Assembly: GCA_964646415.1 (NCBI GenBank)
Contig: CAZYEL010000002.1
Span: forward strand, 8,538 to 72,537
Length of the DNA stretch: 64,000 nucleotides
Source: an uncultured Candidatus Saccharibacteria bacterium
GTDB taxonomy: Bacteria > Patescibacteriota > Minisyncoccia > UBA6257 > 2-01-FULL-56-20
Reading direction: 5' to 3'
Numbering within the stretch: position 1 is the stretch's first letter; the number at the start of each line of letters is the position of its first letter. The notes below the pieces were generated by a model. It did no database searches, was not told where the DNA came from, and saw only the letters and a list, made by a program, of their open reading frames with translations. Shown here one piece after another: positions 2,263-48,803 of this stretch. A program made the position numbers and the translations under genes.

Positions 2263-3054
2263 CTATATCGAACCAGCGCTCAGCTCCCAAAGAGTTTCAT
2301 AAACTGCCCTCATACTTTCCGCAATGCTTGCGCTTCGGATAATAATGCCGTGTTCTTTGCTTTTGATAAGCGATATGATGCCAACACAATCAGCATAAAT
2401 ATCAATTTCGTTTTTGAAGTGGTACAGACCAGGGGATAGAAAACGCACAGTACGCAATTCTTGGCGGTTTCGTTCGGGAGAAAATTCCTTGATCGCTTTT
2501 TCAGTTTTAGGGATGATTCCCCGCGTGGGGATACCAAGATTTGTGCGGCGCTTCCAATAATTATTCAAAAAGTTTTGGTCAAAACCAGATTCCAAAGATT
2601 CGATCGAAGCGAATGAAAGTATCTGATCGGGTTTTGTCTTCAACGTGTCATTCAAAACTTCTTTGATCCCGTCGACCCCTTCATAAAAAAGAATGGTTGG
2701 CTTTTCTTCGGCAGAAGAGAAATTGGCTTCAAATTCATGCTTGAACAACTCCGCTTTTTCAATCATCTCCGCAACTTGTCCTTGTTTTAACTTCAGCTTG
2801 GCGACAATGTCCGAATACTCCGCCGGCACAAAGTATTTCGTACGATTGTTCTTTTTTGCTCGGATTCTTACAAATCCTTTGCGTGAAAGTCGTTTTAGAG
2901 CCTCATACGCGGTAATTCTGTTGAGACCTGCCGCTTTGGCGACAGCGCTTGCCGAGCCAGAACCCAACTCTAGCGCGGCAAGATAGACCGCCATTTCAGC
3001 GCCGTTTAACCCAAGTTCTATTAAAAAATGTTTGACTTCTGTTTTTATATCCAT
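2263..3054 (-). CDS. TrmB-family transcriptional regulator
   Basis: The N-terminal winged helix-turn-helix LIELGLNGAEMAVYLAALELGSGSASAVAKAAGLNRITAYEALKRL is typical of TrmB. The C-terminal TrmB-like domain is present. Confidence 0.65.
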   Translation of the reverse strand: MDIKTEVKHFLIELGLNGAEMAVYLAALELGSGSASAVAKAAGLNRITAYEALKRLSRKGFVRIRAKKNNRTKYFVPAEYSDIVAKLKLKQGQVAEMIEKAELFKHEFEANFSSAEEKPTILFYEGVDGIKEVLNDTLKTKPDQILSFASIESLESGFDQNFLNNYWKRRTNLGIPTRGIIPKTEKAIKEFSPERNRQELRTVRFLSPGLYHFKNEIDIYADCVGIISLIKSKEHGIIIRSASIAESMRAVYETLWELSAGSI

Positions 3055-3983: not shown

Positions 3984-4946
3984 ATGCTTATTGATGACGT
4001 AACAATCACGGTTGTTTCCGGCAACGGCGGGAGAGGCGCCGTCGCGTTCAACAAAAATATGATGAGTCTGGGCCCCGCCGGCGGCTCCGGCGGGAATGGC
4101 GGAAGCGTCTATGCGGAAGGTATTCCGGACATCGGCGCCTTGCGGCAGTTCCGCCACAAAAAAGAATTTGCCGCGATGAACGGCGGAGAGGGCAGAAGCC
4201 AATTCCGGGACGGACGCGACGGCGACGACCTTACTCTTAAAATGCCGGTGGGAACCGCCATCCATAGCCTCGACACCGAGGAAACCGTCGAAGTAACGAA
4301 GGTCGGCGAGCGGATACTCCTCGCGCAGGGCGGCCACGGAGGCAAAGGCAACTTTCAATATAGGTCATCCACGAATACTTCGCCCCGAGAGTTCCAGAAC
4401 GGATTCCCGGGCGAGAATCTTACGCTCCGGTTTGAATTGAAACTTATTGCGGACGTGGGATTCGTGGGACTTCCGAACGCCGGGAAATCGAGCTTTTTGA
4501 ACGAGCTCACCAACGCGAAAGCCAGGGTGGCGAATTATCCCTTCACCACGCTCGAACCGAATCTCGGCGCATATTACGAACTCATTCTTGCGGATATCCC
4601 AGGGCTGATTGAGGGCTCCTCCTCGGGCAAGGGACTTGGGGTAAAATTCCTGCGCCACATTGAGCGCACACGGATTCTCTTCCACCTCGTTTCCGCCGAA
4701 TCCCCCGCTCCCGCCGATGATTACCGGATTGTCCGGAAAGAACTGGATACTTATGCAAAAGCGCTTGTCGAAAAACCGGAGTATCTTTTCCTTTCTAAAA
4801 GCGATTGCGTACCCCCTGCGGAACTGAAGAAAAAGCTTGCAACACTGAAGAAAATTAATCCCAAGGTGATCGCCATCTCCATCCACGACGAAGCAAGCAT
4901 CATAAAAATCCAGAAAATCCTGAATACTCTGAAAACGGCAAAGTAG
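3984..4946 (+). CDS. obg: GTPase Obg
   Basis: The Obg fold N-terminus is glycine-rich. The G domain carries GFVGLPNAGKSSFLN, a DIPGLIEG switch and the other GTPase motifs. Confidence 0.9.
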   Translation: MLIDDVTITVVSGNGGRGAVAFNKNMMSLGPAGGSGGNGGSVYAEGIPDIGALRQFRHKKEFAAMNGGEGRSQFRDGRDGDDLTLKMPVGTAIHSLDTEETVEVTKVGERILLAQGGHGGKGNFQYRSSTNTSPREFQNGFPGENLTLRFELKLIADVGFVGLPNAGKSSFLNELTNAKARVANYPFTTLEPNLGAYYELILADIPGLIEGSSSGKGLGVKFLRHIERTRILFHLVSAESPAPADDYRIVRKELDTYAKALVEKPEYLFLSKSDCVPPAELKKKLATLKKINPKVIAISIHDEASIIKIQKILNTLKTAK

Positions 4947-6293: not shown

Positions 6294-7019
6294 ATGGAGG
6301 ATGGAAGAACTTACATGCCCATCACGCACGACGAGCAGCGGGAAAAATGGAACGAGGAGCACCGTACGCCATTCGCCCTTAAGCAAATGGATGTGCAAAC
6401 GGCTTCGAGAGGCGTGAGGCTCTTTTTGGAATTTCTTCAGAGAAAAGATGCGCATAATCTGATTGGTCTTGAGATGGGTTGCGGCAAGGGACGCAATGTC
6501 ATTGGTCTCGCGAGGGAAAACATCGTTACGAAAATGTACGGCTTCGACTTTTCCGACGTTGCCATCGGTGAAGCCCGACGGCGGGCGGAAGAAGAAAAGG
6601 TATCAAGCAAAGTCCAATTTGACGTAATGGATGCCACGCAAACCTGGAAATATGAATCCGACTTCTTTGATTTTGGCATTGACTGCTTCGCCTCAACCGA
6701 TATTGAAAGCATGGAGGGTAGAAAGTTCGCGGTCGGCGAAATGCGGCGAGTGTTGAAACCAAGCGGGTACTTCCTCGTATACGTAATGTCTACCGACGAC
6801 GAATACCACAAAATGATGGCGGTTAAATCCCCCGCTGATGAAGCGAATGCATTCTACAACGAAGTAAATGGTAAATTTGAGAAATCCTTCTCCAAAGAGG
6901 AACTCGATGCGATGTATAAGAACTTTAAGCTTATTGAGTCAAAAAGGATTGAGAAAGCCACGAAGTTCTTCGAAAAATCCTACAACTGCAAACTTCACTG
7001 GAGGGTTTATAAAAAGTAG
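6294..7019 (+). CDS. Class I SAM-dependent methyltransferase
   Basis: Motif I LEMGCGKGRN and an acidic motif II (FDFSDVAI), consistent with a Rossmann-fold methyltransferase. Confidence 0.7.
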   Translation: MEDGRTYMPITHDEQREKWNEEHRTPFALKQMDVQTASRGVRLFLEFLQRKDAHNLIGLEMGCGKGRNVIGLARENIVTKMYGFDFSDVAIGEARRRAEEEKVSSKVQFDVMDATQTWKYESDFFDFGIDCFASTDIESMEGRKFAVGEMRRVLKPSGYFLVYVMSTDDEYHKMMAVKSPADEANAFYNEVNGKFEKSFSKEELDAMYKNFKLIESKRIEKATKFFEKSYNCKLHWRVYKK

Positions 7020-7044: not shown

Positions 7045-8211
7045 ATGACCCTCGCACTCACCGTTATTCGCTGGATTTTGGGAGTCGTGTGCGCCCTCTT
7101 TCTTGCCGCGCTGGTGCTCGTTACCGTGGGAATCGGCGTCCCTGCAACAAAACTCGCAAGCTCCGATTATGCGAAGCAAGTCCTCACCGCAAGCGGCATT
7201 TATGAACGGGCATCCGATATCGGAGTGGACTTTGTTCTCGTCAAAGTCCGCGCGACCGCCCAAGGCGCAGCCGCCCCGGGCGACGTGAAATCAATGAGCC
7301 GCAGGCTCGTGGACGGATCCGAACTCCGGCGCGAAGTGCATGACCTCTTCCCTCCCGAGTGGATACGGGCGCAGGCGGAAGCGAATATTGAAGGACTCTA
7401 TTGGTACCTTCGGGGCGGTCCCGCCTTTACACCCGTGCTTGATGTCGCCGGCCGGGAACGCGCCGCGCAGCAATCACTCGGTGGAATATTCAAGGGGAAA
7501 ATCAATGGGCTCCCCGCATGCGCATCGGGCGTCGCGGGCGACATGAACCGCCTCGACATTTTTTCCACAACCTGCTGGCCCGCAAACCTCAAGAAAGCGG
7601 AGGCGCATGCGAAAATCGATGACGCACTCAAAGATGCGCCCATCCTGAAGAGCGGCCAGCTGAACCTCGAAAATCCCGACGCGAAGGTCCTCGCGAATAT
7701 CGAGCCCGTCCGCCGCGCCTACAAGGTTGCCGCTTCCCTCCCCCCGCTCCTCGTCTCTCTCATTGCGCTTCTTTTCGCTCTTTCCTTCTTTCTTATCCCG
7801 GGAAAAATCCCGAAAATCGCCGTACCCGCAGGCATCTTGGGCGCGACCGGCCTCGTTCTTTCCGGTGCCGCACTTCTCTTCCGTACGCAATTCGGAAACG
7901 TCTGGGGCACTTTTGCCGAACCGCGGCTCGTGTCCCATGCGCCGTGGCTAAACGACGCGCTTGAAACCCTCGCTTCTGCCGCCATGCATGGCATGACCGG
8001 AGGATATTTACTCTGGGGCTTTTTCGCGATTGTGCTCGGAGCGCTGTTCCTCCTTACGCTCCATTATCCCGCCGCACTGAAAGCAGTCACCGTGGCGATT
8101 GCGATTATGGGCATTGCGGGCGTAATCGGCACCGCCGCATTCGGCATAAGCATACAAAACCGCATTGCCGCGCTCCGGGAAAATACAAGCTTATCCCTTC
8201 CGGCGAGATAA
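7045..8211 (+). CDS. Hypothetical polytopic membrane protein with a large extracytoplasmic loop
   Basis: An N-terminal transmembrane helix, about 200 aa of soluble domain, then about 5 C-terminal transmembrane helices. No recognisable motif. Confidence 0.5.
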   Translation: MTLALTVIRWILGVVCALFLAALVLVTVGIGVPATKLASSDYAKQVLTASGIYERASDIGVDFVLVKVRATAQGAAAPGDVKSMSRRLVDGSELRREVHDLFPPEWIRAQAEANIEGLYWYLRGGPAFTPVLDVAGRERAAQQSLGGIFKGKINGLPACASGVAGDMNRLDIFSTTCWPANLKKAEAHAKIDDALKDAPILKSGQLNLENPDAKVLANIEPVRRAYKVAASLPPLLVSLIALLFALSFFLIPGKIPKIAVPAGILGATGLVLSGAALLFRTQFGNVWGTFAEPRLVSHAPWLNDALETLASAAMHGMTGGYLLWGFFAIVLGALFLLTLHYPAALKAVTVAIAIMGIAGVIGTAAFGISIQNRIAALRENTSLSLPAR

Positions 8212-9386: not shown

Positions 9387-10393
9387 TTATTTCACGACAT
9401 TCTCCGGCTTCCCATCCATGAAACTCCGGATATTGCGGAGAGTGGTTTGCAAAATGCGCTGCATCGCTTCTTTCGAATTAAAGGCGTTGTGCGGCGTGAT
9501 GAGCACGTTCGGCATCCGTATCAGCTCGTGATTACGCAGCAAAACTTTGAGCTCGCTTTCACTCGGGTGCCCGGAAGAGAGGAAAAGCATCTCGTCCCGC
9601 GATTCGTTTTCCTCTTCAAGCACATCGAGTCCCGCACCGCCCAGTATCCCCTCTTGCAACGCCATAACAATCGCTTCCGTTTCCACAATCGCGCCGCGGG
9701 CGGTGTTCACAAGATATGCGCCCCGCTTTACCGTGCGTATATTCCCTTTGTGTATAAGGTGGTGCGTCTGCTCGTTATACGGGCAGTGCACCGTGATGAA
9801 ATCGGAGGAAGCGAGCAGCTCATCCAACCCCGCATAGGTAAACCCCATGCGCTCCGCAAGCGCGGAATCAGGGTACGGGTCATGCGCAACGACATTCATA
9901 TCGAATCCTTTCGCAATCTTCACCGCTTCTCTCCCGATACGGCCGGTGCCTATCACGCCGAGCGTTTTCCCGCGCACATCCACCCCCCGCAAATCATCAT
10001 TGCGGAACGTCCCCGTTTCCTTCACCCGGTCTATCCCCTGATATATTTTTCTCGAAAGATTCAAAATGAGGCCGAACGCGTACTCCGCGACGGTGTTATC
10101 GCCGTAGCCGGGAACGTACAGCACCGTTACTCCCCGCCGCTTCGCCGCAACGATATCAATGTGGTCATACCCCGTGGAACGGGTGGCGAGGCACTTCAGT
10201 TTCGGAAACTGCGCGAAGAGCGCATCGTCGAACTTTGTGTGTACGAATATCGCCGCAATTTCGATGTCTTCCCGTTCCTTCGGAGCGACTTCCGTGCATT
10301 TTTTTTCGTGCAGCCGCAGCTCTTCGCCGGGAAACGCCGTGCGGATTTCCGCTTCCTCCCAATCCTCGACTTGGAAAAATCCTATCGTCATTG
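9387..10393 (-). CDS. D-isomer-specific 2-hydroxyacid dehydrogenase (glycerate dehydrogenase / hydroxypyruvate reductase-like)
   Basis: The NAD-binding motif GVIGTGRIGREAVKIA and the catalytic R/E/H region (LITPHNAFNS). I trimmed the track ORF to the ATG giving MTIGFF..., which overlaps the ppsA stop by a few nt. Confidence 0.85.
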
Positions 10394-20975: not shown

Positions 20976-21383
20976 TTATTTTAAACACTTTGGAAGGCCA
21001 TTAAACCGAACGCAATCTTTAAATGTTTCCCACATAGAATCAACCTCATTTTTAGTATATATATTTTTCTGTACTTCTATCGTTTTATCCATAAACTTTT
21101 CATAAAATTCTTGATACCTCACGTAATTATTATTAATGTAATCGATTGCTACGACAACAAAGGCTATTGCCACCGCAACGGTCACTCCCACTATAAGGTT
21201 ATGGATGACTTTTATTCCTTCTCTTGTTTTTTCTATCTCAGAATCCAAAACGGAAACCTTTTTACCTAAAGTAGTTATGAGCGCATCCACCTCCGTACTT
21301 CCACTTCCCGCTTGACTTCCTGTCGCTGCTGCCCTACTTTCTGTCCCGGCTCCTGCGGCTGTCTCAGTTTGGATCTCGGGCAT
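20976..21383 (-). CDS. Hypothetical single-pass membrane protein (AT-rich cassette, gene 3)
   Basis: A low-complexity Ala/Gly/Ser/Thr N-terminus, one transmembrane helix (IVGVTVAVAIAFVVVAI), and no recognisable domain. Local GC is clearly lower than in the flanks. Confidence 0.45.
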   Translation of the reverse strand: MPEIQTETAAGAGTESRAAATGSQAGSGSTEVDALITTLGKKVSVLDSEIEKTREGIKVIHNLIVGVTVAVAIAFVVVAIDYINNNYVRYQEFYEKFMDKTIEVQKNIYTKNEVDSMWETFKDCVRFNGLPKCLK

Positions 21384-21387
21384 ATTA

Positions 21388-21768
21388 TCAATCTACTGTA
21401 ATAATGTCGTTTCTATCGAAGCTCACTACTTGATCGTTAATTTTAAAAATAATTCTATAGATGCCTTTTTCTGGAAAACGAGCCCCAATGAGGTTAATCA
21501 CTAGATTTGCATTGGGCTTGTTTTCGAGATTGACAAGTTTCATTTCCGAAGAAACAATTTTATTACCACTGGGCGATATAATTTCGATTGTTTTCTTTTT
21601 ATCAAAAATCACACCCGTCACGTTAATTGCAATTGAAAACCTCGGATGAAAAGCTGGAAGACCATCCGTTTTAATCAGATCAAATATACCTATAACACTT
21701 AATTTTTTTTCTTCCGAAAAAAAGGCGTTCTCGCATACATGCAGAAAATTTATCTTAAAATCATTCAT
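21388..21768 (-). CDS. Hypothetical small protein (AT-rich cassette, gene 2)
   Basis: 126 aa with beta-rich composition and no recognisable motif. It lies 20 nt downstream of the protease gene and 4 nt upstream of gene 3, which suggests translational coupling. Confidence 0.4.
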   Translation of the reverse strand: MNDFKINFLHVCENAFFSEEKKLSVIGIFDLIKTDGLPAFHPRFSIAINVTGVIFDKKKTIEIISPSGNKIVSSEMKLVNLENKPNANLVINLIGARFPEKGIYRIIFKINDQVVSFDRNDIITVD

Positions 21769-21788
21769 TGTTTTTTACAGAATATTAC

Positions 21789-22814
21789 TCACTTCCACCC
21801 CTGCTCCATAATTCTCCATCCGACCTGTTCTTGCGGGACTTGAATCGGCCCCTGCGGGGTCTGCTGCACCATATTCACTTGCTGTTTGCGGTATTCGATG
21901 GAAAGCTCAAAGTGGCGTGATTCCTGCCAACTTTCGATAAACGCAATCTTATATTGCTTTCGATTTTGCATAGCATTTATACCCAACTCGTTTTCCGGGT
22001 TCCAGAGCGTTTCAAGGTCCATATCTTTCCTGTACTCCTCAAACAGCTCCGTCATCGCCTTCGCAAGAAGGTTATCCGCGTACGCAACCGACTTCAAACC
22101 CAAGTCCTCCTTCGCCTCCTTTCGCCCGATGAAATACTGGTGCGAGTAAAGTTTTTCGGTGAAGTAATCAACAATCTTTTCCACTTCATCATCCTTCATT
22201 GGCGCTTTATGACTCTTCAGCAACCGCTTCGCGAGGATGCGGATGAGGTTATGAATACGGTTTACGTTCCCGAGCGCCAAAGGATGAATCTGCGGATTCG
22301 ACTCCACGAATTTCGAGAAGATACGCGAAAGCTCTTCGTCGTTCTTGATACCGAACTTATTTTTCGCCAAATCGAAATATGCCATCACGTCCTCGACGGA
22401 AATCGGGATTCTGTTCTGCGGGTTCTGGGGGTCTTGCGGGTTGAAAACATTCGCCGTTGAGGGGTCGATCGGCGAGATTTCTGAAAGGTCGCTCATCGCA
22501 ATTTCATCCGCGCCGAGAGCAATCATCGTCGCCGCACTGTGCGCCTTATACGGCACGAGTACGGAAAACTTATCACAATACTCCCGAATCATGGACACAA
22601 TCCTCCACGGCACCATTGTGTCGCCTCCGGCACTATAGAGAAACAGGTCGATATTCTGGGTTTTCCCGATTGCGCGGAGTTGCTTGCTCACCACGGGAAT
22701 CACGTCCATCGCAATCCGCGCGTTCACCGGTCCTGTCCGGTCGCTTGTGACATAGGTAATTACCCGCGAATTCCGTAGTCCTTGTATCTGATGTATGAGT
22801 TGTTTCTTATCCAT
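21789..22814 (-). CDS. SDH-family (ClpP-fold) serine protease (AT-rich cassette, gene 1)
   Basis: The core IDLFLYSAGGDTMVPWRIVSMIREYCDKFSVLVPYKAHSAATMIALGADEIAMSDLSEISPIDP matches the serine dehydrogenase proteinase (ClpP-class) core (...HTPGG...AMSGGT.IALAADEI...PVDP). About 170 extra C-terminal residues follow. Confidence 0.7.
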   Translation of the reverse strand: MDKKQLIHQIQGLRNSRVITYVTSDRTGPVNARIAMDVIPVVSKQLRAIGKTQNIDLFLYSAGGDTMVPWRIVSMIREYCDKFSVLVPYKAHSAATMIALGADEIAMSDLSEISPIDPSTANVFNPQDPQNPQNRIPISVEDVMAYFDLAKNKFGIKNDEELSRIFSKFVESNPQIHPLALGNVNRIHNLIRILAKRLLKSHKAPMKDDEVEKIVDYFTEKLYSHQYFIGRKEAKEDLGLKSVAYADNLLAKAMTELFEEYRKDMDLETLWNPENELGINAMQNRKQYKIAFIESWQESRHFELSIEYRKQQVNMVQQTPQGPIQVPQEQVGWRIMEQGWK

Positions 22815-44910: not shown

Positions 44911-45705
44911 TTACTTGTGCCTCATGCTACCACATTTTTCCGCTGCCTTCAAAATTCCCAAGAACTCCTTTGGCTTCAAACTTGCCCCGCCGACAAGCGC
45001 GCCGCCGATTTCGGGCTCGCGCAAAAATGAACCGGCATTCTTCGCGTTTACGGAGCCGCCGTACAAGACAGCAAGTGGCAAATAGCAAATGGCAAGTAGC
45101 TGGGATTTTATGAAGCGAATCATCTCGACGGCGTTTTTGGGGTCGTCCGCGGCGTGAGTCGGGTCGCCTCCACTGATTGCCCACACCGGCTCGTACGTGA
45201 TAGATAGCTTTAAGCCTTGAACTTCAAGCTTCAAGTGGTCAATGCCACTCAAATCCTCTCTAAGCTGCCGCTCCACGAAGCGCTTCGCGGCGGGAATGCC
45301 CTTGCGGCGCACCTCTTTCGACTCCCCCACGCAGAGAATTACGTGTAACCCCGCCTTGAGCGCGGCGAGTACTTTCTTGTTCACCATCACATCGGTCTCC
45401 GCGAGATTGTGCCGCCGCTCGGAGTGCCCGACAATCACATACTCCACGTTTGAACTTTTGAGCATCGCCGCCGACACCTCGCCCGTAAAAGCACCCGCCT
45501 CTTCCCAAAACACGTCCTGCGCGCCGAACTTCACCTTCCCCGTCGACTCATGCGACATATCGGTGAGCCACACGAAAGGCGGGCAAAGCACCACGTCCAC
45601 TTTCTTGGGAGAAGATTTGATAACCGCCTCCGCCAACTGCTCCGCCTCCTTGTAGGTAGGAGGGTTCATCTTCCAATTGGCGATGATGAGTTTATTCACA
45701 GGCAT
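44911..45705 (-). CDS. tpiA: Triosephosphate isomerase
   Basis: The motifs ANWKMN, VGHSERR, YEPVWAI and YGGSV. Confidence 0.9.
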   Translation of the reverse strand: MPVNKLIIANWKMNPPTYKEAEQLAEAVIKSSPKKVDVVLCPPFVWLTDMSHESTGKVKFGAQDVFWEEAGAFTGEVSAAMLKSSNVEYVIVGHSERRHNLAETDVMVNKKVLAALKAGLHVILCVGESKEVRRKGIPAAKRFVERQLREDLSGIDHLKLEVQGLKLSITYEPVWAISGGDPTHAADDPKNAVEMIRFIKSQLLAICYLPLAVLYGGSVNAKNAGSFLREPEIGGALVGGASLKPKEFLGILKAAEKCGSMRHK

Positions 45706-45744
45706 ATTGGGATTTTAACACAAAGCCGTAGCAAACAAGGAACT

Positions 45745-46245
45745 TCAATTCTTGATCAAAGAAAACTCAAGAAAGTTGAGTACTTTATTTTTAAGTTCAT
45801 CAAAAGAGGAAACATGTTTGTCGCTTCTTTCTGCGATTATGATTGACAAGTTATAGTAGCCATACTCTTCCGGCCTAAAATCATTGAAATCATGGAAGCT
45901 ATCATAATTCGGAAATAATTCTCTTAGCTTAGTTTGATAATCTTTTTTTGTTTTGCCTGCAATATCGTGATCGTTGTAGAAAATAAAGAATAGCGTAGTG
46001 GCTAGAGCAACTCTTTTATTGCCGTTCGAGAAGAAGTGCCCTTTGCTGATTTGGACGAGCAGATAAGCCGCTTTTTCAATAACGGTGGGATAAAAATCCA
46101 TCTGTACTCCTCGCAAAACACCGCATAATTTCTCTACGCCATTTTTTTCTAACGAGAAATCAGGAACACTTTCATGTGAAGAAAAGTGGTCTTTAACAAC
46201 TTCAAAAATAGCCCTCAAATCATCCGGGTCTACATAAATCACCAT
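45745..46245 (-). CDS. doc: Doc-family (Fic/Doc) toxin
   Basis: The Doc signature HFFSNGNKRVALATT (HxFx(D/N)GNKR). It lies in an AT-rich island. Confidence 0.75.
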   Translation of the reverse strand: MVIYVDPDDLRAIFEVVKDHFSSHESVPDFSLEKNGVEKLCGVLRGVQMDFYPTVIEKAAYLLVQISKGHFFSNGNKRVALATTLFFIFYNDHDIAGKTKKDYQTKLRELFPNYDSFHDFNDFRPEEYGYYNLSIIIAERSDKHVSSFDELKNKVLNFLEFSLIKN

Positions 46246-46253
46246 TGATATCT

Positions 46254-46424
46254 CTATCTATCCGCAAGCCGTTCCAAAGCCCTGCCAAACCTAGTACTCA
46301 CAATGCTGGAGACCGATTCCCGGCGGCGCTTCACTTCACGATTTTCACGCTCGGTTTTAACATCCTTTCTTTCATTATTCTCTCTCCCCTTATTTTGGAA
46401 AAAGGACTTGATTTTATTGACCAT
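46254..46424 (-). CDS. Small charged ORF immediately upstream of doc, a putative antitoxin
   Basis: The minus strand encodes MVNKIKSFFQNKGRENNERKDVKTERENREVKRRRESVSSIVSTRFGRALERLADR*, ending 8 nt before the doc ATG. It is not in the ORF track (under 60 aa). No recognisable Phd fold. Confidence 0.3.
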   Translation of the reverse strand: MVNKIKSFFQNKGRENNERKDVKTERENREVKRRRESVSSIVSTRFGRALERLADR

Positions 46425-46631
46425 GATATGGATTTGCTAGAGATACAATTATTGTAGCACAAGCCCCTAGGTTAGTTGGGGACAGGGCCACATAGTAAAA
46501 CACGGTTCTTCATAGCATTGCAATATCGCCGGTTGGCAACAATAAGTTTGTGCGCGTTCATTTTTAATTCTATTTGCACAAAAAAAGCTTTGCGGGAGAG
46601 TTGGAATTGATGTATTATGCTTTCTGTTTGA

Positions 46632-46703
46632 AGGCCCCATCGTCTAGTGGTTAGGACACTGCGTTCTCAGCGCAGGAACAGGAGTTCGATTCTCCTTGGG
46701 GCT
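46632..46703 (+). tRNA. tRNA-Glu (anticodon CUC)
   Basis: I built the cloverleaf by hand. Acceptor GGCCCCA/TGGGGCT (G1-U72), D-arm GTCT-AGTGGTTA-GGAC, anticodon stem CTGCG/CGCAG with loop TTCTCAG, T-arm AGGAG-TTCGATT-CTCCT, discriminator A. No CCA is encoded. Confidence 0.85.
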
Positions 46704-47502
46704 ACGGATAAAATGTTTTACTATCGTGCACGAGCTTAATACGTCCGATATTGAGAAACAGGAAGCTATTGTCCGCCGAATTACTCACCAAAGATTGGGT
46801 GGATTCTGCACTTACCTTAATAAAGCAATCGATGTCTTGATCAAGCTTTATTACAGGTTGCCAAAAATAAAGGACGTAGAAACTCTTGAAGATAGATATC
46901 TATCTGATCTCGGTTACTGGCTTTATATGTCTACATTCACATTTCGATCTTGTTTCCTTCTCATCGAAAACGGTTATTATCTTGAAGCAAATATAATATG
47001 TCGAAGTCTGATCGAGATTTATGTAAAAATGCGCTATTTTGAGAACCGTAAGGATCAATTAGAAACTTTCGAGCAGCCACATATCAATTCTAAGAAGAGA
47101 CCCACGGTGAACTTTAAAACAATGTTTGATGAGGTTTTGCCAGGATACTACGATGAAGTCTATAGATTTATGCTTTCTCATATGGCTCATGGTGGGGTAG
47201 GGGCTCGACTTTTCAAAGTCAGATTCAGATCGCCGACAAATATGGAAGCAGACCAAGGCGTTGTATTCAATGAAGAGTGGGGTAGTATGGTAATTAATAA
47301 TTTAAGTAGTTATATTTTTGGTTATATAAGGTTTTATAAACACATCTACCCCGATACCATAAAAGGATTAGAGCCCGATGTGATTAAAGAACTATTATCA
47401 GTGGAGAAAACTTTAGAGACTAATTTTAATCAGCATATCCAGCTTAAAGGAAAAGAAAATGCTTGGCATAAAGTTTCCCGGCAAATCTGGGATTTCAAGT
47501 AG
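46696..47502 (+). CDS. Hypothetical protein in the AT-rich island adjacent to tRNA-Glu; possible HEPN/Abi-like
   Basis: AT-rich codon usage and no clear family. The motif RFMLSHMAH fits an Rx4H HEPN-like motif. The track ORF start overlaps the tRNA, so the true start is probably internal (for example the GTG giving VHELNT at about 46726). Confidence 0.4.
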   Translation: MGLRIKCFTIVHELNTSDIEKQEAIVRRITHQRLGGFCTYLNKAIDVLIKLYYRLPKIKDVETLEDRYLSDLGYWLYMSTFTFRSCFLLIENGYYLEANIICRSLIEIYVKMRYFENRKDQLETFEQPHINSKKRPTVNFKTMFDEVLPGYYDEVYRFMLSHMAHGGVGARLFKVRFRSPTNMEADQGVVFNEEWGSMVINNLSSYIFGYIRFYKHIYPDTIKGLEPDVIKELLSVEKTLETNFNQHIQLKGKENAWHKVSRQIWDFK

Positions 47503-47513
47503 ATTAGAGATTA

Positions 47514-48803
47514 CTACCCCACCTTAATCTCCCCCACCACCTCCTCAAGATGCATCGCGTGCGAGCCCTTCACAAGCACGAGGTCTCCTTTTTGAATCAG
47601 GTTATGCACCGGATTCGCCGCATCTTCCGCCGTATCGAAACTCATAATGCGGTCGCGGGGAACGCCGGCATGGAGGGCGGCGTCGGCAATGAGCTTCGCG
47701 TGCGCGCCCACGGTGACGATTATGTCCGCGCATTTCGCGGCGAGCCGCCCGGCTGATTCATGCGCCTGCATCGCGAACGAGCCGATTTCAAGCATATCGC
47801 CCAGAACCGCGACGCGGCGGGTTCCCGGAAGGTCGCGGAGCGTCTCGAGTGCGCTCCGCATCGAGAGCGGACTTGCGTTGTACGAGTCGTCGAGCACGCA
47901 CGACTCCTTTACTCCCGCATGCAAATCCATACGTCCCTCTGCAGGCACATAGCGCTTCAATGCCTCGGAAATCGTGACGAGGTTCATGCCGAAAATCAAC
48001 CCGACGGACGCCGCCGCGCCCGCCGCGTACGCGTGCGCGCGCCCGAAGGCGTTGTCGAGCCGCACCGGCACGAAACTGCCGCCGTGCTCTATCTTAAACG
48101 AAATGCCGAGCGGCTTCCCTTCGAAGACCTTGTGCTCGAACCGCGCGAGCGCAACTTCCGCGCCGTCCCCGAATCCGTAAGTGCATACGTGCGCGCGCGT
48201 CTGGTCTTTAAGCGCCATGACCGCCGGGTCGTCGTGATTCAGCACCGCGAACCCCGCGGCGGGAAGGCTCTCGATAAGCCGCGCCTTTTCGCGGGCGACC
48301 TCCCCGGGATTCGCATAGAACTCCACATGCACCGGCACCTCGCCTATCGCCGTGATAACGCTCACGCTCGGCCGCGCAATCGAAAGGAGTTCCTTGATGT
48401 CCCCGGGTTTGTCCGCACCGTATTCAAGCACAAGAATCTCCGGATACTTCTTCTTCGGCAGAAAAAGAAACTGCGCCATGCCGCCGCAGAGCACCCGAAA
48501 CCAAAAAAACGCCTTGCGCACGGGCTGCCCCGGAGGAGCTTCCCTGCTCACGAGTCTCGCCGCAGCATCTCCCCACTCTCCCAAAATGGCGACAGGGAGC
48601 CCCAAATCGTTATTCAAATTCCCCGGCGCGGCGCGCACCCGCCGGGCCGCCCCGAGCACGGCGGCAATCGCAAGCTTTGCGGAAGTCTTGCCGACGCTCC
48701 CCGTTACCCCCACGATATCCGGCTCGAACCGCCACAATGTAAGCCGCGCAAGCGTTTTCAATTTCCAACGCAACATACTACGCACAAAATTTCTCATACT
48801 CAT
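47514..48803 (-). CDS. murF: UDP-N-acetylmuramoyl-tripeptide--D-alanyl-D-alanine ligase
   Basis: The Mur ligase P-loop GVTGSVGKTS, the central domain and the C-terminal GSHAMHLE. Confidence 0.9.
   Translation of the reverse strand: MSMRNFVRSMLRWKLKTLARLTLWRFEPDIVGVTGSVGKTSAKLAIAAVLGAARRVRAAPGNLNNDLGLPVAILGEWGDAAARLVSREAPPGQPVRKAFFWFRVLCGGMAQFLFLPKKKYPEILVLEYGADKPGDIKELLSIARPSVSVITAIGEVPVHVEFYANPGEVAREKARLIESLPAAGFAVLNHDDPAVMALKDQTRAHVCTYGFGDGAEVALARFEHKVFEGKPLGISFKIEHGGSFVPVRLDNAFGRAHAYAAGAAASVGLIFGMNLVTISEALKRYVPAEGRMDLHAGVKESCVLDDSYNASPLSMRSALETLRDLPGTRRVAVLGDMLEIGSFAMQAHESAGRLAAKCADIIVTVGAHAKLIADAALHAGVPRDRIMSFDTAEDAANPVHNLIQKGDLVLVKGSHAMHLEEVVGEIKVG

Follow-up and report, generated by a model that had tools for sequence, protein, structure and literature searches.

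In a 64-kb stretch of contig CAZYEL010000002.1, from a member of Candidatus Liptonbacteria in the candidate phyla radiation (CPR), an AT-rich islet lies between tpiA and murF. The whole stretch is referred to here as the window. Our comparison with related genomes makes it likely that this islet consists of two independent slots for accessory genes beside a resident tRNA-Glu(CUC) gene. The slot on the 5' side of the tRNA holds doc, which encodes a toxin, together with a small open reading frame (ORF) for its candidate antitoxin, and the slot on the 3' side holds a gene of the DUF5677 family (Table 1). The accessory nature and the horizontal acquisition of the islet are supported. With a GC content of about 0.385 compared to about 0.532 for the whole window, the islet (45706-47513) has the lowest GC of any 1.8-kb stretch in the 64 kb (mean 0.532, standard deviation 0.036). 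Values between tpiA and murF range from 0.33 to 0.44, and those of the flanks from 0.55 to 0.65. The initial annotation of this DNA had pointed out the low GC between tpiA and murF as well as the four features of the islet, all of which were recovered at most 1-2 nt from the positions it gave.

The closest relatives were found via MurF, and three contigs, L042, L043 and L044, with MurF identities of 79%, 87% and 74%, were compared to the window. All three carry PBP-murF on one side, preceded by mraZ-rsmH-ftsL in L042 and L044; the L043 contig begins within the gene that precedes murF. On the opposite flank, tpiA-SIMPL-GtrA-murB is retained in L042 and the start of tpiA in L043, and the L044 contig stops 1 kb past murF, so that the tpiA side is unseen there. 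The synteny comparison proposed in the initial annotation thus gave conserved flanks, as far as the contigs reach, and different genes inside. On the 3' side of the tRNA, L044 is empty, with 4 nt between tRNA and murF stop codon. The same interval is scar-filled in L042, where a filler of approximately 195 nt lies between 16-nt direct repeats (TTCCCCTTGGGGCTAC) of the tRNA 3' end and is followed by 65 nt, and it holds a Trypsin_2 gene and a 98-aa ORF in L043. In the window DUF5677 is the only gene at this place. On the 5' side, the small ORF and doc of the window have as their counterparts an HTH_3 gene, a Gp49 gene (HigBA-like) and a 180-aa gene in L042, a GIY-YIG ORF with a duplicated tRNA 5' half and a 180-aa gene in L043, and a 202-aa gene in L044, whose contig ends before tpiA is reached. 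The limits of the 5' slot are given by the sequence kept between window and L042, which extends on the tpiA side to 45722 and resumes with the tRNA promoter at 46613.

The tRNA-Glu(CUC) gene was located at 46633-46705 by ARAGORN and at 46633-46704 by Rfam (59.6 bits), in agreement with the earlier assignment to 46632..46703. Together with about 20 nt of promoter and leader it shares 93-94% identity between the window and L042 or L043, which identifies it as a resident gene, and it is convergent with murF in the window and in L042, L043 and L044. Since the tRNA is present in the relatives and the genes on both sides of it differ, the islet is best described as two variable slots around a resident tRNA. 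The Rfam scan of 45000-48000 and of the related loci L001, L004 and L022 returned tRNA only and no other RNA.

The initial annotation had instead considered a single integrated island or remnant at the tRNA. In its full form this explanation combines a toxin-antitoxin module with an Abi/HEPN-type RNase that has an Rx4H active site. Low GC, the adjoining tRNA and the toxin-antitoxin module agree with it. However, the resident tRNA splits the islet, doc lies 5' and DUF5677 3' of it, both sides vary independently, and integration at the tRNA 3' end would not have placed the Doc module on the 5' side. We regard the combined explanation, the HEPN part of which is taken up with the DUF5677 protein below, as very unlikely; what remains of the island is integration at the tRNA, which is backed by the comparative junctions. 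It is extremely improbable that the region was vertically inherited and that its low GC reflects the local composition of an ordinary intergenic or housekeeping region. Conservation of the tRNA-Glu gene and its promoter in the relatives would fit, but the gene content of both slots is different in every relative examined. For DUF5677, where a word-index search had yielded 11 proteins, an exhaustive profile search gave 278 representative clusters (E <= 1e-3) among 1.84 billion cluster representatives, and the Doc modules in L035, L037 and L039 likewise are lower in GC than their flanks. Neither a gene order and GC content conserved in all relatives nor clear housekeeping homologs, either of which the initial annotation had named as contrary evidence, were found.

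Similarity between the genomes ends directly after GGGGCTAC(G) at the tRNA 3' end. At the junctions compared for the presumed core TTGGGGCTAC, namely those of the window, L042, L043, L044 and L004, divergence begins right past the core. The 3' side of the tRNA would accordingly represent an integration hot spot with crossover in the last bases of the tRNA (GGGGCTAC). In the window the DUF5677 insert is essentially the ORF plus a 20-nt leader. The sequence GTAGATTAG (47498-47506) equals the spacer beside the murF stop codon in L042, a 9-nt match that hints weakly at the end of the insert. An inverted copy of the att core at the murF stop codon (GGTGGGGTAG) was also considered and dismissed, since a resemblance over 7-10 nt has no significance. 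Between 45500 and 47800, such repeats as occur are short and no more than expected by chance.

The same arrangement recurs in other genomes. In several CPR contexts of DUF5677, including the window, a tRNA 3' end is located 20-190 nt upstream on the same strand. It belongs to tRNA-Glu(CUC), 88 nt upstream, in L004 and L006, and to tRNA-Gln(UUG) in L001 (185 nt) as well as in L018, L019 and L021 (91 nt); the L046 contig begins with a tRNA 3' end, the tRNA being cut by the contig end, 110 nt before DUF5677. In L001 the tRNA-Gln 3' end is present a second time, displaced, and the cassette directly follows this copy (CCCCGCAGCCA followed by TTTTGTG); L002 and L003 have the identical cassette behind a different tRNA-3'-like fragment. 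A functional pair of tRNA and DUF5677, in which the protein acts on tRNA-Glu or tRNA-Gln or the tRNA is carried as a spare or decoy copy, might be read from this recurrence beside the same two tRNAs, from the co-orientation of gene and tRNA in every tRNA-linked case, and from the inverted orientation of the tRNA-DUF5677 unit relative to murF between the window and L004. Such a pair is highly unlikely, since tRNA-Glu occupies the same place and orientation in relatives without DUF5677, the cassette boundary falls after the tRNA, the same cassette is found without a full tRNA in L022 and L002/L003, and members of the family outside the CPR, e.g. those in L016 and L032, have no tRNA nearby.

Two of these loci demonstrate the transfer of a cassette. 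L004 5905-7787 and L022 4905-6791 are 99.5% identical over 1887 nt, including DUF5677 and two small ORFs, and their flanks are unrelated. The left junction of the cassette in L004 is situated within the last 8 nt of tRNA-Glu, at GGGGCTAC, and GGG(G/T)CTAC is present at both ends of the cassette in L004 and L022. To the right of it, L022 encodes a 555-aa large serine recombinase, of which L004 retains only the last ~105 nt. Large serine recombinases were found at most 2 kb from DUF5677 in L022, L045 and L007. Further neighbors of DUF5677 are a Rep gene, a restriction-modification pair and a reverse transcriptase in L045, and a reverse transcriptase fused to a protease in L007.

This proximity raises the question of whether DUF5677 assists the large serine recombinase as an accessory factor, such as a recombination directionality factor, with the window copy as a fossil left after recombinase loss. 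Known serine-integrase directionality factors are similar in size to the DUF5677 proteins of about 255 aa. Besides the three CPR loci just named, DUF5677 is reported to be enriched and predicted to be co-transcribed beside serine recombinases in Bacillota, and one Bacillota homologue, assayed against six Enterococcus faecalis phages, was not among the defending ORFs (preprint, Andersen et al., bioRxiv 10.1101/2025.10.07.681051). On the other hand, the DUF5677 genes beside recombinases are 72-73% identical, whereas those recombinases share 25-33% with each other, which argues for shuffled, exchangeable cargo rather than a co-evolving partner. Intact DUF5677 genes are also found without any recombinase in the window, L001, L018, L015 and L046, and dN/dS is 0.08 between L001 and L018, both at the dnaX-tRNA-Gln locus. 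A role as accessory factor thus appears quite improbable.

We favor the interpretation as cargo that was left at the tRNA. As already noted in the initial annotation, no recombinase gene was found between tpiA and murF. The search for a repeat of the tRNA 3' end near 47510, suggested there as a check for an att site, was carried out and yielded no copy. Because a recombinase gene or fragment and an att repeat are both absent from the murF-tpiA interval, the window copy is considered a remnant: DUF5677 would be what is left of a stripped element at the tRNA end, of which the tRNA-proximal cargo gene alone remained. This mobile-remnant interpretation is supported by the comparative junctions.

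The toxin in the 5' slot belongs to a divergent Doc subfamily. It matches Pfam Fic/DOC (PF02661; 33.2 bits, cutoff 24), PHROG 577 'Doc-like toxin' (E 7e-12) and PDB entry 9vzc 'Death-on-curing family protein' (E 3.5e-8), but stays below the cutoff of NCBIfam DOC_P1 (TIGR01550; 34.6 bits, cutoff 38.65). Residues 68-78 form the motif KGHFFSNGNKR, which 20 homologues share without change and which fits HxFx(D/N)(A/G)NKR, with Lys instead of the Gly of Fic. An AF2 model (predicted local distance difference test, pLDDT, 92.6) had P1 Doc as its top five Foldseek hits in the PDB, with probability 1.00 and TM scores of 0.69-0.75. Profile, motif and predicted fold therefore agree with the original assignment, which was based on HFFSNGNKR. 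Doc toxins phosphorylate EF-Tu and thereby halt translation, and the window protein would do the same. Together with the small ORF, doc would constitute a bicistronic toxin-antitoxin module of type II.

The 56-aa partner combines a basic, variable N-terminus with the conserved C-terminus I-V-S-T-R-F-G-R-A-L-E-R-L-A-D-R. The doc homologues of L035, L037 and L039 are likewise preceded, at a distance of 9-16 nt, by homologous small ORFs with this C-terminus, which there reads I-S-T-R-F-G-R-A-L-E-R-L-(A/G)-D-R, in L037 as a close variant. Among the four partners the N-terminus is not conserved, and the C-terminal segment is kept in all of them. No match to the 56-aa protein was found in Pfam, NCBIfam or PDB, and hence no Phd/YefM DNA-binding domain. 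The small ORF, previously placed in antitoxin position without a recognizable Phd fold, thus proved to be a conserved partner of Doc. Aligned at the C-terminal residue, its GRALERLADR corresponds to residues 64-73 of Salmonella Phd, GNELRELADK, with matches at the Gly64 kink, the hot spot Leu67, the 'gatekeeper' Leu70 and the terminal A-D-K/R (PMC9207808). By its sequence the protein looks like the C-terminal domain of Phd without the Phd/YefM DNA-binding domain. A 22-residue C-terminal peptide of Salmonella Phd alone binds Doc with picomolar affinity and rescues growth (PMC9207808), and the 56-aa partner may neutralize Doc by a C-terminal helix-kink-helix equivalent to Phd residues 52-73. As it lacks the DNA-binding domain, autoregulation, if any, must work differently. 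Judging from gene order, the promoter of the antitoxin-doc operon presumably lies in 46425..46612. A simple consensus scan revealed no promoter in this stretch, and scanning the islet for promoters and terminators was not informative.

In the 3' slot, the initial annotation had reported a 268-aa protein of unknown family that abuts the tRNA. The 268-codon ORF (46696-47502) exists and contains RFMLSHMAH, but its mechanical TTG start falls inside the tRNA. GTG 46726 (MHELN...) aligns with M1 of all homologues and is consistent with the NCBI product of 258 aa, so that the gene starts 20 nt after the tRNA. The family is not without a name either, the protein scoring above the gathering threshold of Pfam DUF5677 (PF18928; 38.7 bits, cutoff 27.1), with coverage of profile positions 12-58 of 166 only; 94 out of 100 relatives match the same family. 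Across 100 diverse members R93 and H155 alone are invariant, and L79, G83, Y85, E97, Y104, Y142 and G178 are conserved at 90% or more. In the AF2 model (pLDDT 85) the protein folds into an all-alpha bundle that includes a single small hairpin. DUF5677 is under purifying selection: dN/dS among homologues is 0.08-0.28 where computable, dS being saturated in most pairs, which characterizes these genes as encoding working proteins. The GC content of the gene is near that of homologues in low-GC Parcubacteria (0.35-0.39), and in several other hosts DUF5677 genes are below their flanks.

The initial annotation also considered a HEPN-like Abi protein on account of an Rx4H motif. RFMLSH indeed is present in the window protein, and 2 out of 100 family members match the CARF+HEPN model of PADLOC at E ~1e-3, which is roughly chance level. 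Among 11 close homologues, however, R of this motif is replaced by K and H by N or E, the family-wide invariants R93 and H155 are 62 residues apart, and the AHGG loop is disordered in the AF2 model rather than positioned at a helix N-terminus. With the Rx4H motif not conserved and neither a HEPN profile hit nor a HEPN fold match obtained, this assignment was rejected.

Searches of viral structures, PDB sequence profiles and PADLOC gave no match for DUF5677, nor did tblastn against plasmid and phage collections. Among the neighbors in nine loci no conserved partner gene was detected, and a conserved three-gene module was not found either, the L004 neighbors of DUF5677 being unrelated to doc and the small ORF of the window. 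In view of its neighbors and its mobility, our best guess is a stand-alone cargo protein of defense or addiction type. As the 20 nt between tRNA and start codon leave no room for a promoter, DUF5677 probably is expressed by read-through from the tRNA promoter and then released by tRNA processing. A more far-reaching proposal is a cassette system in the CPR that, similar to integrons, stacks small cargo cassettes behind tRNA genes. Its core GGGCTAC would mimic the tRNA-Glu 3' end and also sit in the 3' end of the serine recombinase gene, each cassette bringing a replacement 3' end of the tRNA or recombinase gene. DUF5677 would then be a promoter-less effector of a new kind, co-transcribed with the tRNA, with an R-E-H site and a fold without a solved relative. 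We consider this proposal doubtful.

Several points weigh against the interpretation given here. Neither the 33-nt motif derived from the recombinase 3' fragments of related loci nor a second tRNA 3' end (24-mer with at most 3 mismatches; 10-mer with at most 1 mismatch) was detected in the window, and the mobile origin of the window copy is argued from comparison with other genomes. A repeat of 16 nt, as in L042, would be more usual for a tyrosine integrase than for a serine recombinase, and the enzyme acting at the tRNA end may be of either type. With 10 residues anchored at the C-terminus, the match to Phd is too short for a formal statistic, and co-transcription of tRNA and DUF5677 is deduced from their spacing. 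A defensive role of DUF5677 is matched by no PADLOC model, and the distant Bacillota homologue was not among the 5 out of 9 ORFs reported to defend E. faecalis (10.1101/2025.10.07.681051). Finally, all comparison loci are metagenome contigs, and faulty assembly could explain some of the differences in context; the main configurations were seen in 2-6 independent assemblies.

Table 1. Features of the islet and its flanks (positions in the window)
Feature	Position	Strand	GC	Remarks
tpiA	44911-45705	-	0.553	islet flank
5' variable slot	45723..46612	-		from blastn of the window against L042 and L043
doc	45745-46245	-	0.361	166 aa; 39 nt upstream of tpiA, same strand
small ORF, antitoxin candidate	46254-46424	-	0.45	56 codons; ends 8 nt before doc
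intergenic stretch, antitoxin gene to tRNA promoter	46425..46612			no similarity to relatives ahead of 46613
resident core	46613..46705	+	0.575 (tRNA)	tRNA-Glu(CUC) gene 46633-46705, conserved -10 region (TATTAT) and leader
presumed recombination core TTGGGGCTAC	46696..46705	+		3' end of tRNA acceptor stem
DUF5677 gene	46726..47502	+	0.369	258 aa; GTG start; sole occupant of the tRNA 3' slot
right junction	47498..47516			DUF5677 stop codon 47500-47502, then 11 nt, then murF stop codon 47514-47516 (- strand)
murF	47514-48803	-	0.616	islet flank

Further observations were made in the related loci. The 180-aa gene located between tRNA-Glu and tpiA in L042 (8417-8959, minus strand) and L043 (4304-4846, minus strand) is 82% identical between both. 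It contains CAE...PCxxC motifs, appears deaminase-like by eye, has no Pfam hit and was not found anywhere in the 64-kb window. Small GIY-YIG ORFs abut tRNA genes in L043 (3856-4116, minus strand, with 4158-4222; 86 aa), where the ORF is bracketed by the duplicated tRNA-Glu 5' half, and in L004 (553-792; 79 aa), where it touches tRNA-Val. They may represent a tRNA-targeting homing-type element in CPR genomes. Short fillers that separate a tRNA from a further copy of its own 3' end are present in L042 (7264-7483; ~195 nt) and L001 (5816-5934; ~125 nt). Both hold GAAGCGAGG and a hairpin, and they may be miniature non-autonomous integrative elements.

A repeat of ~75-105 nt occurs in four copies, at 4835-4912 and 6684-6791 of L022 and at 7707-7787 and 9130-9204 of L004. 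All copies finish with ...CTCTCAC(TT/GG)GG(G/T/A)CTAC, the core of which is the tRNA-Glu 3' end. One copy in L022 makes up the final 35 codons of the gene for the 555-aa serine recombinase, and another, an orphan, lies left of the cassette with DUF5677. The arrangement suggests that the cassette was inserted into the recombinase's own 3' end and supplied a replacement end. The ~75-nt repeats of L004 and L022 fold no better than shuffled sequence. These two loci also share a stretch of ~145 nt (L004 7074-7219, L022 10082-10221; 77% identity) with a promoter-like TTGACA and a leader, located ahead of two small ORFs that differ from each other. Rfam returned no hit for this stretch, which may be a shared regulatory leader or RNA element. 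In L001 a 66-nt direct repeat (6780-6845 and 9913-9978) surrounds a 3.1-kb segment with genes for a HAD hydrolase, an inositol monophosphatase-like protein and two unknown products. L003, otherwise with an identical DUF5677 cassette, lacks this segment, which constitutes an insertion/deletion polymorphism at the repeat.

Elsewhere in the window, a second low-GC islet (0.37-0.42) was noticed at 20976-22814 on the minus strand. It adjoins an excinuclease-like helicase gene, which we take to be uvrB, and its products are an unknown protein of 135 aa, a DUF6941 protein of 126 aa and a ClpP-like serine protease of the SDH type with 341 aa. A low-GC gene (~0.41) at 2263-3054 on the minus strand, encoding a TrmB-like transcriptional regulator, is likewise compositionally deviant.

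An islet of this kind, with accessory genes at a tRNA hot spot and a toxin-antitoxin module, is already known, and current understanding is not overturned by it. Two details are less ordinary: the minimal Phd-like antitoxin family and the DUF5677 clade at tRNA 3' ends with serine recombinases. The 56-aa protein, apparently a natural counterpart of the Phd C-terminal peptide, provides a compact test case for a toxin-antitoxin module without a DNA-binding antitoxin. Accessory-gene exchange in the tiny CPR genomes is poorly known, and this locus and its relatives show insertions that recur at a tRNA 3' end. Moreover, they connect the widespread, uncharacterized DUF5677 family to serine-recombinase cassettes.

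Compared to known systems, the 5' slot resembles Phd-Doc of phage P1 and Salmonella in the predicted Doc fold and the HxFx(D/N)(A/G)NKR motif of the toxin, in the small gene placed directly upstream with an 8-nt gap, and, over a stretch of 10 residues, in the C-terminus of the partner (GRALERLADR versus GNELRELADK in Salmonella Phd; PMC9207808). It differs from Phd-Doc in that the partner has 56 aa and no Phd/YefM domain, its N-terminal two thirds being basic, variable and without a profile match, and in that the toxin has 166 aa instead of the 126 aa of P1 Doc, contains an extra conserved block, YNLSIIIA, and falls below the DOC_P1 cutoff. DUF5677 shares with HEPN-domain Abi proteins an all-alpha fold and accessory or defense-type neighborhoods, but has no conserved Rx4-6H motif, HEPN profile hit or HEPN fold match. 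Four CPR DUF5677 loci resemble serine-recombinase-associated defense loci (RADS; 10.1101/2025.10.07.681051) in their linkage to a serine recombinase or its remnant. Unlike in RADS, the CPR gene does not follow the recombinase on the same strand but is convergent with it or set apart from it, and no recombinase remains in the window. With respect to tRNA-linked genomic islands, the window retains a single 0.8-kb gene without integrase or attR, and the recombinases beside homologous cassettes are of the large serine type instead of the usual tyrosine integrases. Nevertheless, the locus shares with these islands the start at a tRNA 3' end, the deviant composition and the absence from relatives with the same flanks, and related loci display the direct repeat of the tRNA 3' end (16 nt in L042) and the displaced tRNA-Gln 3' fragment (L001) known from such islands.

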